A DNA stretch of 52,517 nucleotides from a virus (taxonomy: Duplodnaviria > Caudoviricetes), in IMG/VR virus record IMGVR_UViG_3300033067_000691, positions 1-52,517 of that record, one strand, 5' to 3'. Below, piece after piece: positions 23 through 52,517 of the stretch; positions within the stretch are counted from its first letter, which is position 1; every line of letters starts with the position of its first letter. Both the position numbers and the translations under genes were made by a program. The notes beneath the pieces were generated by a model. It was not told where the DNA came from. It saw nothing but the letters and a program-made list of their open reading frames with translations, and did not search any database.

Positions 23-81
23 CCCTAACACGTCATTCCAGCGGACCGGCCTTCGGCCGCCCGCTGAATTCGGCGTTATAC
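23..81 (+). mobile_element. attC: integron attC site (59-base element)
   Basis: R'' CCCTAAC (23-29), inner arms TTCCAGCGGACCGGCC-TTC-GGCCGCCCGCTGAA, R' GTTATAC (75-81); 59 bp imperfect hairpin. Confidence 0.85.
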
Positions 82-140
82 GGCTTCATGCGAACATTGA
101 CGTTGGACAGCTTGGCGTTGATTTCTTTGAACTGGAACAT
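33..140 (-). pseudogene. truncated phage gene whose C-terminus is supplied by the attC (MFQFKEINAKLSNVNVRMKPYNAEFSGRPKAGPLE)
   Basis: AAGGAG RBS and ATG at 140; frame crosses the attC GTT crossover and stops inside attC. Confidence 0.5.
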
Positions 141-182
141 CGTGGACTTCTCCTTTTCTTACCGGAAATGATGGTTGGTGGA

Positions 183-614
183 TTACTCGACTACCTGCCA
201 GTCCTCGGCAAGCGCATCGGTCTGGCTGCACAGCCACGGCACGATCTGGCCGTTCGCCGTCTTCATGTCGATGTGCGCGTGGTAGTCGATCTGCGTGCCT
301 TCGGGATAGATGCCGAGCAATGGCGGGCGCGACACAAAGAACGTGGATCCGGGCACCAGAAACAGGAACATTCCTTTGCCGTTCCAGCCGGCGCGCGCAA
401 CCTTATTGCCCAGCTTCAGCATGTGCAGGGCGTCGCCGAAGGTCAGCGACTGCCCTTCGCCTTCAATGGCGCGGTAGGCTTCCTCGAAGACGGCGCGCGG
501 AGAAAAGCTCTGGTAGCCGTCTGCATAGGTAACGGCATAGCCGTCGCCGCGCGGGTCATCTGGCGTGACTGGATAGGCGGCGATGATCTTGGTTCCGATG
601 TATTTGCGGTGCAT
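183..614 (-). CDS. tad2: DUF2829 / Tad2-like cyclic-nucleotide sponge with an extra N-terminal domain
   Basis: C-half TFGDALHMLKLGNKVARAGWNGKGMFLFL...MKTANGQIVPWLCSQTDALAEDW matches the SPO1 Tad2 motif pattern; GGAGG RBS. Confidence 0.8.
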   Translation of the reverse strand: MHRKYIGTKIIAAYPVTPDDPRGDGYAVTYADGYQSFSPRAVFEEAYRAIEGEGQSLTFGDALHMLKLGNKVARAGWNGKGMFLFLVPGSTFFVSRPPLLGIYPEGTQIDYHAHIDMKTANGQIVPWLCSQTDALAEDWQVVE

Positions 615-12593: not shown

Positions 12594-12796
12594 ATGCCCC
12601 GCAGACGCCGCGCTGCACGCTGGCACGGTTCATCCCGAACCAGATGGACATCGAAGAGGTAAAGGCCGATGGGTGGAACGATCACAGGATTCTTGTTGTT
12701 GGCGCCGACGATACGCGCATCAACTGGATGGAGCGCCAGGTCATCGAGCAGATCGGCGAGAAGCTCTACCGCGATCGGAGATCGTCCCGTGGCTGA
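12590..12796 (+). CDS. hypothetical phage protein
   Basis: GTGA coupling. Confidence 0.55.
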   Translation: MNAPQTPRCTLARFIPNQMDIEEVKADGWNDHRILVVGADDTRINWMERQVIEQIGEKLYRDRRSSRG

Positions 12797-13187
12797 TCAT
12801 CACTTTGCCTTGGCCTGGGCAGAGTTCGAGCGGCTGCGCCGGCTGGTCCCGGAGCGCGCCGATTTCCACCTTGCGAATTGGGGGCGGTGGCGCAAGCATG
12901 ATGTGGTGACCGTCGGCTATGCCGATCATGTTCCCGGGCTCGACAAGGGCATCGGGCGATGCGTGGCGGAAGATGCCAGCGACCACGACTACGAGGCGCA
13001 CGACGCCTATGCGGCGGAAGTCTGCGACACCATCATTGACGAACTGCCGCAGCTGTACCGGATGGCGATCAGCAACGTCTATGAGGCCTCGGTGTGGCAG
13101 TTCCGCAGCACCGCGATACTGGAGCAGGCGCTGGTCGATGGCGCGGCGCTGTTCTGGCATGAGGCGCAGAAGCGCGATCTCATTTAG
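12789..13187 (+). CDS. Q-like late antiterminator candidate
   Basis: HLANWGRW motif; last early gene before a structured leader and the lysis genes. Confidence 0.55.
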   Translation: MADHHFALAWAEFERLRRLVPERADFHLANWGRWRKHDVVTVGYADHVPGLDKGIGRCVAEDASDHDYEAHDAYAAEVCDTIIDELPQLYRMAISNVYEASVWQFRSTAILEQALVDGAALFWHEAQKRDLI

Positions 13188-13281
13188 ATTCAATTGGGCG
13201 TGAAATCCACCGCTATTTGATTGCCCATGAAAAGCCGGAACGGAACACAATCACGTCCGACAAGTTGCGCCCAGAGAATAC

Positions 13282-13453
13282 GAAGCCCGCCAGGTGAAAG
13301 CCTCGCGGGCTTCAGCGTTTCTACGCAGCCAATCAGCCGGCCCTACTGCAAGCAGGGGCTTTGAACACGGCGCCGGACGCTGCAACCGGCAAGTCTCCTC
13401 CTCGGTCGCGCAAGCGATCGTTTCCGCCAGCTCCCACCACGGCTGGCTTTCTT
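13282..13453 (+). ncRNA. structured late-leader RNA ending in a terminator-like hairpin
   Basis: Hairpins 13282-13313 (GAAA loop), 13372-13390, 13403-13420 (GCAA loop) and 13426-13447 followed by TTTCTT. Confidence 0.45.
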
Positions 13454-13466
13454 ACAAAGGCGCAAG

Positions 13467-13916
13467 ATGACAACCCTGAACATCGTTGTTGATGGCGATG
13501 ATGCTTGGCGTCTTGAGCGCTTCGATTGGCAAATCGGAACGCATGGGTATGCTTATCGTCGCGAAAAAATCAACGGGAAGTGGGTATTGATCCTGCTGCA
13601 CAGGGAAATAATGGCGTGCAGCAATGACCGCGTGATTGATCACATCAACGGCAACGTGCTAGACAATCGAAGAAACAATCTTCGTGAATGCTCGCTGGCA
13701 GAAAACCTGAGAAACAGGAAGACCCACAAGAACAACAGAACGGGTCTGAAAGGCGTCTACTGCGATCAGCGTCGAAAAAACAAGCCGTGGCATGCCCAAA
13801 TTCGTGTTGATGGAAAGAAGGTGTATCTCGGTTCATTCGCCGCCAGCGCTGAAGCATTCGCCGCTTACGTGGCCGCTGCGCGCAAGTACCACGGCGAATT
13901 CGCGAGGTTTGCGTGA
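13467..13916 (+). CDS. HNH-AP2 homing endonuclease
   Basis: LLHREIM...IDHINGNVLDNRRNNLR, then TGLKGV...WHAQIRVDGKKVYLGSF...HGEFA. Confidence 0.9.
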   Translation: MTTLNIVVDGDDAWRLERFDWQIGTHGYAYRREKINGKWVLILLHREIMACSNDRVIDHINGNVLDNRRNNLRECSLAENLRNRKTHKNNRTGLKGVYCDQRRKNKPWHAQIRVDGKKVYLGSFAASAEAFAAYVAAARKYHGEFARFA

Positions 13917-50300: not shown

Positions 50301-51313
50301 GGCTGCCTCCGCAAAAATGCAGGGATTGGGTAGGTGATGCGCTCAGGTTTGCGCGCCTCCGGGTATCCGTCGTGCAGCGTTCCAGCCAGGTCGCGCCCTG
50401 CCGCCTTCTTTCCGACTCGAACGACCGTCAAGACGTCGGCGCACTCGTCCTGAAGGGCGTCATCGCCTTCGTTCCAGAACGTGCCGTCGCTGCGAATGTG
50501 GCGCACTTCACCGGCTGCTGTCCCGAAAGCCTGCGCGCCAGCGTTCACCCATTCGCCCCACTGCTTGAACAAGAACGGTACGCCGGCCGACTCGCATTGA
50601 TCGTGCAGGTCGTATGCCCATGACCCATGCATCGGTCGCGCCTCCGGTCCGCTCTCCCCGCCGACGATGACCCAATCGAGCGGACTATGAAGGTCTTGCC
50701 AATCCGGGTCTTTTCCTGGTCTGAACTTCGGGCGAAGATAGCTGCTCAGGTCGACCAGCCCAAGCAGCGGTTCCATGCTGACGAACCGCACCGCCGCCGG
50801 TGTCGCCAGCAGCTTCGGGATGTCTCGGTCGGCCTCGGCCTGATTGACGACCGTGGCGCCAAGCCAGACGTTGTGCAGCAATTCTCGACCTGGATCGATC
50901 GCGCGCATTTCGCGAGTCGCTTCGACCATCATTCGCTCGGCGTTTCCGATCCGCTTCGTCAACAGTAACCAGTCGAGATTCGGGGTCTGAGCGATCAGGC
51001 TGAATAGATCGGCACGCCAATGCTCCGGAACCTCGTTGTCGAACACGTCGGCGAGGCTCGCGCAGAAAACTCGGCGGCGCCGGCCGTGGGCGGCAAAGAA
51101 CTCGTCATGCTGGCGATCCCATTGCAGCGGCTTCTTCCAGTTGCCCGGCGATGTGCGGCTGCGCGGATTTCCAGTACCCCATTTGACGCGGTGCTTGCGG
51201 TGGTCAAAGTCGGCCTCCGCGTAGCAGTTATCGCAGCCAGGACCCACCTTGGTGCACCCAATCCATGGATTAAAACTAGAATCGCACCAGGCAATTTCAG
51301 TGTTTTCAGCCAT
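50297..51313 (-). CDS. DUF5131 / phage Gp37-Gp68 family (radical-SAM-like)
   Basis: FNPWIGCTKVGPGCDNCYAE, LLTKR, FVSMEPLL, WVIVGGESG, FLFKQWG. Confidence 0.9.
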   Translation of the reverse strand: MAENTEIAWCDSSFNPWIGCTKVGPGCDNCYAEADFDHRKHRVKWGTGNPRSRTSPGNWKKPLQWDRQHDEFFAAHGRRRRVFCASLADVFDNEVPEHWRADLFSLIAQTPNLDWLLLTKRIGNAERMMVEATREMRAIDPGRELLHNVWLGATVVNQAEADRDIPKLLATPAAVRFVSMEPLLGLVDLSSYLRPKFRPGKDPDWQDLHSPLDWVIVGGESGPEARPMHGSWAYDLHDQCESAGVPFLFKQWGEWVNAGAQAFGTAAGEVRHIRSDGTFWNEGDDALQDECADVLTVVRVGKKAAGRDLAGTLHDGYPEARKPERITYPIPAFLRRQP

Positions 51314-52043
51314 GTTGCCTCCCTTGCGCCACAGCCAGCGCCACCGCCACCGGCCGAACCCAGATCGGCGACGCCGAGAGCATGAAGGTTTCTCCAGACC
51401 AAGCCAGCAGCAGCGTGGTCCCCATGACGCCGGCGATTGCCGCTGCGGCGTCTGGTGGTACCGCGTTGCCGATGCGTTCGCGCCAGTCGCTGTCGCTGAG
51501 TCCATCGAGTTCAAGGTATTCCTCGGGCTCAACCAGAGATTGCAGGGCAGCGAGCTCGAGCGTGGTGAATGGGCGATGCCAGGTGCCGTCGAGCAACCGC
51601 ACCACCAGCCCCGCCGTGCCGCGTGTGGCGGCCAGCAGACGTTGCGCTTCGCCCTGGGTGAGCACGACCGGGAGCCGTTTGGAGGGCTTGGCACGGGTGA
51701 TGCTGTCGAGCCAGCCGAGTTCGACGCCGAGTACTTGCCTGTAAAGGAATAGGATGGCGTGCATGGCCTGGTTCTGCGTGCCCGCGGCGACGTCGCGCAC
51801 CGTAGCCAGGTGCGACAAGAATGCTTCGACCTCGGCCGCGCCCATGTCGCGCGGGTGGCGCAGACCGTGGAAGTGAATGTAAAACTTGATCCAGTGCAGG
51901 TAGGTATTCTCGGTGGCGCGGGCATAGTGGAGCACACGAATGCGCTCGCGCACCTGGTCAAGCAGCTTGGGCGGCTTTGCCGGGGTTGGCGTGTCGCGTT
52001 TGACTGGCGCGAGTGTCGCGTCACGTTCGATGACTTCAGTCAT
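51306..52043 (-). pseudogene. intI: chimera: integron integrase N-terminal half fused to a C5-cytosine methyltransferase C-terminus
   Basis: KLLDQVRERIRVLHY...TQNQA...RAKPSKRLPVVLT, then DGTWHRPFTTLELAALQ...RERIGNAVPP; no catalytic R-H-R-H-Y residues. Confidence 0.85.
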
Positions 52044-52071
52044 GGTGCGGTTCTCCTGTGATCGGTGCCGA

Positions 52072-52131
52072 GTTATGCGACATGACAGGCGCGTTCACGC
52101 GACATCGGGTGTCGTTGAATTTAAGTTGGGG
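52072..52131 (+). mobile_element. attI: integron attI site
   Basis: Direct repeats GTTATGCGACAT / GTTCACGCGACAT, L-like GTTGAAT (52114-20) and core GTTGGGG (52125-31), just upstream of intI. Confidence 0.7.
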
Positions 52132-52391
52132 GTCTTGTTTGCCGCATTCCATGCTTCGCGGCACTTGTTGTAACACTCGGCTTCTGGCATAAAATAGTCC
52201 AGTACCACCGGGGTTGTGTCACCGCCGCAATATCCGCACTCAACAACGGCAACGTTATTCCGGTGGCCTTTGTATAGCATCTTGATTATGTAGCGTTCGC
52301 TTCCGCAGTGTTTGCATGGCGCAACCCCCAACCCGTCGTCCAACGCGGACGTGCCGCTCGATGCTTCGTTGTTGCTCGGTGCGTTCTCCAT
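52095..52391 (-). CDS. Lar-like restriction-alleviation zinc-ribbon protein (cassette 1)
   Basis: PCKHCG...VECGYCG...REAWN; AT-rich core; ends PNLNSTTPDVA inside attI. Confidence 0.65.
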   Translation of the reverse strand: MENAPSNNEASSGTSALDDGLGVAPCKHCGSERYIIKMLYKGHRNNVAVVECGYCGGDTTPVVLDYFMPEAECYNKCREAWNAANKTPNLNSTTPDVA

Positions 52392-52448
52392 GTTCAATCT
52401 CCCTTAGTGGCGTCAGTGGGCGGCACGCCGCTTACCTTGGCGTTGGGG
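52326..52448 (+). mobile_element. attC: integron attC site (123 bp)
   Basis: R'' CCCCAAC, arm GCGGACGTGCCGCTC pairs with GGGCGGCACGCCGC, R' GTTGGGG. Confidence 0.82.
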
Positions 52449-52517
52449 GTCTCGGGCCGTGGGTCGCCGTCGCCATCAAGAACGTCAGGCTCTCCATTCA
52501 TCAGCGCATCGGCGTGC
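52394..52517 (-). CDS. cassette 2 ORF, partial (...HADALMNGEPDVLDGDGDPRPETPNAKVSGVPPTDATKGD)
   Basis: Reads across the attC core as PN and stops in the attC loop; continues in frame from the ATG at position 11 if the genome is circular. Confidence 0.5.
   Translation of the reverse strand, partial: HADALMNGEPDVLDGDGDPRPETPNAKVSGVPPTDATKGD

Follow-up and report, generated by a model that had tools for sequence, protein, structure and literature searches.

A probable integron remnant in a phage genome, with bottom-strand cassette genes that end in neighbouring recombination sites

Why would genes at the end of a phage genome begin and end inside recombination sites? The textbook integron carries promoterless top-strand genes expressed from Pc, and its attC is a non-coding recombination site. 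The window that we analysed, a whole IMG/VR virus record (52517 nt, linear, CheckV completeness 92%), encodes a terminase large subunit, a portal protein, a RecT-like protein and other phage families, and has integron sequence at both ends of the contig. At its right end all genes lie on the minus strand, in the order open ORF (52516..52394), Lar-like ORF, 245-aa ORF and DUF5131 gene. This end is probably the attI-proximal end of an integron remnant, co-directional with the phage early operon. A sequence-only reading had noticed that genes stop and start within the att sites here, and that observation is real. The relevant features, the att sites being predicted ones, are as follows:

51306..51605, minus strand: phage C5 DNA methyltransferase, C-terminal remnant; in-frame fusion with the intI fragment
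51606..52043, minus strand: 5' fragment of intI, residues 1 to ~146; matches PF13495 only (E 2.4e-27), no catalytic domain
52044..52125, no strand assigned: attI; crossover between 52125 (G) and 52126 (T)
52095..52391, minus strand: Lar-like zinc-ribbon ORF, 98 aa (100 aa if the start is 52397); last 9 codons and TGA (52097-52095) in attI
52126..52442, no strand assigned: cassette 1, 317 bp, from the attI crossover to that of attC1; its coding strand is the bottom strand of attC
52324..52450, minus strand: attC1, 127 nt; R' box 52448-52442, R'' box 52332-52326; crossover between 52442 and 52443
52358..52419, minus strand: variable loop of attC1; contains the upstream ORF's stop (52396-52394), GGGAG (52403-52399) and the ATG of the Lar-like ORF (52391-52389)
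52394..52517, minus strand: 3' part of the cassette-2 ORF, open at the contig end; core ending ..RPETPN, then a 15-aa tail and TGA from attC1
23..81, minus strand: distal attC (attC2 of the sequence-only reading), 59 nt; crossover between 75 and 76
37..141, minus strand: 34-aa ORF (PYNAEFSG); first ~17 codons of a phage gene, then unrelated codons and an attC-encoded tail and stop

Where do the recombination sites lie? In alignment A1, which joins the window to 9 integron loci, conservation runs from the intI ATG as far as AAC|TTAAATTCAACGACAC, past which the loci are unrelated. Because this alignment of 10 loci ends exactly there, the attI crossover is placed at 52125|52126, the position that had been claimed for it beforehand. 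The site is directly upstream of the intI start, and its G|TT crossover falls where conservation among related integrons ends. Homology in blastn stops at 52127-52134, and Logan contigs terminate at 52126-52128, as expected of a branch point in the assembly graph. On these features 52044-52125 reads as a genuine attI, and it is oriented relative to intI as usual, as are both attC sites.

An attC is defined, in the accessible part of PMC5027507, by an R' box (RYYYAAC) and an R'' box (GTTRRRY) on the bottom strand and a length of 57-141 bp. The boxes of attC1 (CCCCAAC/GTTGGGG) and of the distal site (GTATAAC/GTTAGGG) are each one position off the R/Y consensus, and the two sites have the boxes and the length of an attC. 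The string GTTGGGGGT has just two occurrences in the window, at 52125 and 52442, and its complement has just one, at 52324; the R'' box of attC1 is complementary to the start of its own cassette 1 at 9/9 positions, a rule that also holds in the related integron L166, while the own cassette start of the distal attC is missing from the window. Finders that relied at first on hairpin energy and R-box complementarity overlooked known attC sites, so a motif search and two-arm weight matrices were used. The 25 sites of the reference set, taken from arrays beside intI in bacterial and viral loci, have in common AAC-G..AG in the 5' arm and GACGG-GTT in the 3' arm. Applied to 79 loci, the weight-matrix detector placed 178 sites upstream of intI and in its sense; a single call fell on the opposite strand and none downstream. 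In the window the two 5' arms rank 1st and 2nd of 105000 positions and the two 3' arms 1st and 3rd of 104992, all on the minus strand, with attC1 taking rank 1 for its 5' arm and rank 3 for its 3' arm.

A covariance model, R1, was also applied; since RNAalifold on a 23-sequence MAFFT alignment gave only 5 pairs, a 15-sequence subset served as its input. The distal site (81..23) scores 34 bits (E 8.4e-7) over all 65 positions, the only significant match in the window on either strand, and by this fit it has the unpaired spacer, the L box and the extrahelical L''-arm bases of an attC hairpin. It folds with z of -2.7 and -2.0, with a 1x2 asymmetric loop and the extra base on the 3' arm, and is 81-85% identical over 47-48 nt to sites within the arrays of L008, L077 and L119; blastn also finds it in L098. 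On attC1, with inner stem arms at 52350-57 and 52420-27, R1 matches the 3' arm alone (10.3 bits), because the model does not span the 62-nt loop. Summed contig depth over 52336-52403 is 10-20x that of neighbouring bins in four runs, so that the attC loop and 3' arm, or the N-terminus encoded there, would be a common repeat in those metagenomes.

That the repeats are chance palindromes in GC-rich phage DNA, with no attC at 52324-52450, is extremely unlikely: the folding energy of 52320-52454 is modest (z -1.3 and -2.0, with single-base bulges on the 3' arm), a 9-nt inverted repeat is expected ~0.7 times by chance in 618 nt by our own estimate, and R1 gives attC1 an E of only 1.7, but both arms rank no lower than third among about 105000 positions, with strand and order as expected of an attC, the 3' arm bears the clade motif GACGG-GTT, Logan contigs branch at both boxes (at 52441 and at 52324-52330, the latter with at least 5 different left flanks), and relatives diverge exactly at the predicted crossovers. 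Judged by their motifs and surroundings, 52324-52450 and 23-81 are genuine attC sites whose bottom strand is the minus strand of the window.

How are the genes placed on these sites? Translation of the Lar-like ORF would begin from an SD-like GGGAG (52403-52399) and the ATG at 52391-52389 in the attC loop. The ORF then reads the R''/L'' arm as ..SALDDGLGV, continues through the zinc-ribbon core to ..KTPN, in which AAC is the crossover triplet, and takes nine codons and TGA from attI. The gene has no stop of its own; it passes the AA|C crossover with AAC as Asn and terminates in attI. With cassette 1 drawn as a circle, the ORF would occupy 315 of the 317 nt. Upstream, the cassette-2 ORF ends ..ETPN|AKVSGVPPTDATKGD, its TGA (52396-52394) two bases ahead of the Lar-like ATG; a Logan contig carries its reading frame on past 52516. 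The loop of attC1 had been read as holding an upstream stop, an RBS-like GGGAG and the Lar-like start, and all three are found between the inner stem arms. Every incoming frame at attC1 stops in the loop or earlier (52434, 52415 and 52396).

The Lar-like protein matches PF14354, the Lar family of restriction alleviation, at E 2e-4 and 21.9-22 bits, under the Pfam gathering threshold of 28.6; 8 of the 13 members of its family match at E <= 0.01 (best 2.2e-6), and it has no match among the PHROGs. A promoter scan of 51900-52517 found no minus-strand promoter. The only promoter-like match there (52168-52195, plus strand; TTGTAA, 16-nt spacer, TAAAAT) is inside the Lar-like ORF and directed away from intI, as a cassette promoter would be.

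The crossover triplet is read as Asn in three ORFs: TPN|LNS (52133-52116), TPN|AKVSG (52450-52427) and, at the other contig end, PYN|AEFSG (83-60). Agreement of three ORFs in one frame has a chance of 1 in 9 and is not significant alone. All three do cross the core in this way, as the sequence-only reading had it, yet the third does not belong with the others. Its full 185-aa homologue is found in the relative L171 (4851..5408), where the nucleotide alignment fades at about window position 92; its AAC frame would therefore be an accident of a phage gene cut after ~17 codons. The GC3 of this ORF (0.34) is unlike that of adjacent genes; codon-position GC did not discriminate among the short ORFs. 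Adjoining the array is a 143-aa gene (183-614, minus strand) that matches phrog_872 and phrog_1048, of unknown function.

If stops and tails come from the neighbouring site, identical cores should be found with different tails, and they are. The Lar-like set comprises 21 sequences (the 13 of the family and 8 further members of one 90% cluster). In 19/21 the common core ends at ..ANxT(P/T)N, followed by 17 distinct tails; the motif is absent from one of the remaining two sequences, and the other is a fragment of 61 aa. Seven cluster members that are identical or nearly so over residues 1-86 carry five different tails, and one tail of the cluster, seen three times, resembles that encoded by attC1 of the window. 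The second family, that of the cassette-2 protein, diverges directly after ..RPETPN in 6/6 sequences: the five relatives (105-117 aa) have a 91-aa core in common and 5 other tails. From the peptides, the tails of the relatives in both families would be att-encoded. The prediction of common cores with varying tails thus holds, although it had been framed for phage proteins in general and these are rather integron cassette proteins. The tails are unrelated to one another, and their lengths (1 to 27 aa) suggest that they themselves do nothing. A search for the Lar-like cassette elsewhere found no match in viral contigs and none in 323 loci; a search of 401 genomes of one order, also negative, was run without a positive control and hence shows nothing.

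Is the reverse orientation of the genes peculiar to this window? We took a census of 118 cassettes between consecutive attC calls, calling ORFs mechanically, and obtained 68 top-strand ORFs, 14 bottom-strand ORFs, 19 ambiguous cassettes and 17 with no ORF. By source, the counts are:

Viral contigs: bottom strand 12, top strand 1, ambiguous 12
Genomes: bottom strand 1, top strand 50, ambiguous 4
Metagenomes: bottom strand 1, top strand 17, ambiguous 3

Bottom-strand ORFs thus outnumber top-strand ones 12 to 1 in viral loci, against 2 to 67 in bacterial loci (Fisher p 1.4e-11), a comparison that, like that of frame below, is not blind because the viral loci were retrieved with a different query than the bacterial ones. 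Among the viral cassettes 12/25 are ambiguous by composition, and three of these were later assigned to the bottom strand by family matches. The ORFs of the window run in the same sense as intI, not on the top strand and away from intI as in a canonical cassette.

Could the minus-strand ORFs be shadow frames, with the real cassette genes on the top strand as in ordinary integrons? Long antisense ORFs do arise in high-GC DNA, and the composition of 19/118 cassettes leaves their strand ambiguous. Against this, no ORF on the plus strand of cassette 1 exceeds 25 aa, and the Cys pairs of the Lar-like family are kept across 13 sequences. PHROG or Pfam gives strong matches for six bottom-strand ORFs from viral loci, whereas 0/5 and 0/4 of the top-strand alternatives matched families in two scans; the bottom-strand matches are to phage families, namely an exonuclease, a DHH phosphoesterase, a PAPS reductase, DNA methyltransferases and phrog_18597, at E values from 1e-16 to 1e-107. 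The shadow-frame explanation is accordingly most improbable.

What has become of the integrase? The 245-aa ORF (52043..51306) is a chimera of IntI residues 1 to ~146 and methylase residues 147-245. The intI fragment is 94% identical to P0002, a full-length IntI of 343 aa with PF13495 and PF00589. The rest, residues 147-245, shares 83-94% identity with the C-terminal end of a phage cytosine methyltransferase; many viral contigs carry this gene, and L171 has it intact, at 635 aa. The window thus has no intact integrase with a catalytic domain and is not a complete integron; since its own intI is truncated, any shuffling in this phage would need an integrase in trans. A 1956-nt contig of run X2, from another sample, covers window 51689-52127; its protein (P0022) is identical over intI residues 1-118 and then has a different, unrelated tail. 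By this comparison the X2 fusion is a second independent truncation of the same intI. The X2 contig extends past the attI crossover into another cassette.

The closest full-length integron is L166 (9050-14402), the attI of which is nearly identical to that of the window and which is followed by ParB-like, SSB, integrase-like and Dam methylase genes. The idea that an L166-like ancestor lost the DNA separating intI from a neighbouring methylase gene is unsupported, the gene after intI in L166 (640 aa) being ParB-like. Within 8 kb, L164-L168 have no phage gene in common with the window. The term viral follows the IMG/VR label; L164-L166 carry ParB, SSB and integrase genes, and the gene context of L166 would also fit a non-phage mobile element.

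The 12 IntI from viral contigs form one group in a tree of 161 sequences (SH-aLRT 86; 0/500 shuffles as low), their retrieval by a different query than the others favouring such clustering. No relative of this IntI closer than 65% identity was found among one genome each of 185,579 species, and none closer than 57% among GenBank phages. In Virus Rctr41k (L325, KX853513.1; 1-11639) an intI-like gene 47% identical to P0002 is part of an all-plus-strand operon, with ten co-directional genes upstream and methyltransferase-like genes downstream; no attC was found in that virus by the clade-specific model R1.

Both contig ends are within integron sequence, the record is linear and 92% complete, and the ends have no direct join. 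Might an assembler have joined a bacterial chromosomal integron, or host flank, to a phage genome, so that the phage context is artefactual? Logan contigs X19 (2673 nt), X18 (615 nt) and X1 (378 nt), from runs of two studies, cover the joint of intI and methylase with no mismatch. The second joint, that of the truncated phage gene and the distal attC, is internal to the contig. Moreover, the relatives L192 and L186/L183 combine a full intI with this phage lineage's methylase or RecT-like genes on the same contigs. An assembly chimera is therefore very unlikely. The read-archive check used Logan contigs only, in which uncovered stretches carry no meaning. Direct circular joining of the contig ends, which would give a 150-bp mini-cassette, was rejected: sequence of run X1 past 52516 continues the cassette-2 frame, and the 5 relatives of the cassette-2 protein, with a core of 91 aa of which the window has only the last 25 codons, also contradict abutment of the ends.

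What would such an arrangement do? The whole is best explained, we think probably correctly, as a phage integron remnant with bottom-strand, stop-less cassette genes and translated attC linkers. Cassette genes lie on the attC bottom strand, the reverse of the textbook layout. Each starts in or just after its own attC, fills the cassette without a stop codon and exits across the AA|C junction, where AAC gives Asn. Whichever att site follows supplies the nearest stop in frame, close to the start and ribosome-binding site of the gene after it. The attC would thus double as a translated linker, encoding in turn a C-terminal tail, a stop/start junction and the N-terminus of the next protein. If the tails are translated and tolerated, as we suppose, one common frame would preserve translational coupling in any cassette order.

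A common frame is what we find. For each of 45 distinct attC sites in viral loci of this IntI clade we took the longest bottom-strand ORF with its end nearby. ORFs that pass the crossover do so in the AAC frame in 24/26 cases and in each other frame once; at the other sites, 12/45 ORFs use their own stop in or just before the R' box and 7 run on for more than 150 nt. No viral AAC-frame ORF has its own stop. In bacterial arrays, where such ORFs are mostly shadows, the three frames are used 15/17/3 times, the AAC frame in 15/35 (binomial p 1.7e-7). The bias at the AAC that the sequence-only reading had expected is thus seen well above background. Coupling is suggested by the spacing of the genes: counting as the next ORF one of at least 50 codons, 22/31 AAC-frame run-on ORFs have its start within 12 nt of the supplied stop, and 15 of those 22 are 4-nt stop/start overlaps (offset -1). 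The earlier proposal that each gene borrows its tail and stop from the neighbouring att site, in a way proof against shuffling, accordingly gains support from both the tails and the frame bias, the two tests that had been named for it; the tails would be translated, and the common frame may be selected.

The main alternative accepts the layout as real and takes it to be neutral. Tightly packed reverse genes would run on to the first stop, and the tails would be junk; the common frame would reflect not selection but cassette ends in common, for example AGACCCCCAAC on both cassettes of the window. In its favour, the tails are unrelated and range from 1 to 27 aa, the two window cassettes do begin with the same 11 nt, the viral sites include the 12/45 where the bottom-strand ORF brings its own stop, and run-on is also seen in 5/68 canonical cassettes. 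The frame bias, however, is 24/26 across differing cassette ends (THN, VPN, APN, RPN and TPN) against the 15/17/3 of the background, 15 stop/start overlaps are of exactly 4 nt, and AAC-frame ORFs with a stop of their own number 0. Neutrality is on balance unlikely, though far from negligible. Selection of the common frame would fit the reading of translated attC linkers, which we prefer.

The close relative L171 offers a similar picture. Three attC sites were found in it, in the sense of its early genes. Four consecutive ORFs have cores ending in PN or SN, three of which run into called attC sites; the fourth lacks a called attC. Each of the first two stops overlaps the start that follows by 4 nt. 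The three attC sites (12647-13574) come after an ASCH-like gene, at a genome position different from that of the array in the window, and no intI was seen within the 16 kb examined.

More broadly, the viral sites may belong to a clade of integrons on phages and similar mobile elements with the opposite coding sense, in which open-ended bottom-strand modules are joined by attC sites serving as frame-standardised translated linkers. Any order of cassettes would then be a coupled operon read towards intI, and the cargo would be shuffled as phage accessory genes that may counter host defence; the methyltransferases, exonuclease, DHH phosphoesterase, PAPS reductase and Lar-like protein would be such cargo. 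We offer this tentatively, as possible rather than probable.

Why does the layout matter? In the lineage of these viral contigs recombination sites lie within coding sequence, with the crossover inside an Asn codon. If it is selected, the layout illustrates how genes can be reordered by a recombination system and still be translated, and it points to phages employing integron machinery for their own accessory genes. It also bears on annotation: some pipelines, as the accessible text of PMC7370490 has it, discard ORFs overlapping attC by more than 50 nt, and would therefore miss or mis-call these genes.

How does this compare with known systems? Integrons in phages and crossover-spanning ORFs are already known. 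We found no description of bottom-strand, stop-less, coupled cassettes in the main texts of the open-access literature searched. According to the accessible part of PMC9892861 (Qi et al. 2023), phages with intI, attI, attC and cassettes, often with DNA methyltransferase genes, have captured fragments of chromosomal integrons; the arrays are described there as having 'the typical structure', and that part of the text does not speak of a bottom-strand, stop-less or coupled layout. Shewanella phage M16-3 has the canonical layout, with genes divergent from intI, whereas those of the window run in the same sense as intI. The canonical cassette, in the accessible portions of PMC4889954 and PMC5027507, is a promoterless top-strand ORF transcribed away from intI.

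It had been assumed that canonical cassettes keep their ORF outside attC, which is false: in our census 26/68 canonical ORFs stop inside their own attC and 5/68 read through it, so that 31/68 end inside or beyond. Exactly 6 nt of overlap with the own attC is found in 19/68 (bacterial arrays, loci L004-L163), and these ORFs probably use the TAA of the R'' box as their stop. At the R' box, TAA|C occurs in 118/176 attC sites of bacterial arrays. Canonical genes that overlap attC are on the top strand and their own stop moves along with them, whereas here the stop belongs to the neighbour. A published precedent for crossing the junction is ORF-11/ORF-18 of the class 1 attI1, an ORF that spans the crossover, takes its stop from the next cassette and aids translation of the next gene by coupling, as described in the accessible part of PMC8876359. 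The genes of the window are like ORF-11 in spanning the crossover and borrowing a stop from a neighbour. They differ in that ORF-11, so far as that text goes, is a tiny top-strand leader in attI1 that reads into a cassette, and they are full-size bottom-strand proteins that read out into attI or attC.

Reverse-oriented cassettes also occur in sedentary chromosomal integrons, for example toxin-antitoxin cassettes, which have their own promoters and stops and are exceptions within their arrays. The genes of the window resemble these in running opposite to the direction of the cassette as defined by attC. Unlike them, in the viral clade the reverse orientation is the rule (12/13 callable cassettes), and the genes would form one coupled operon with intI.
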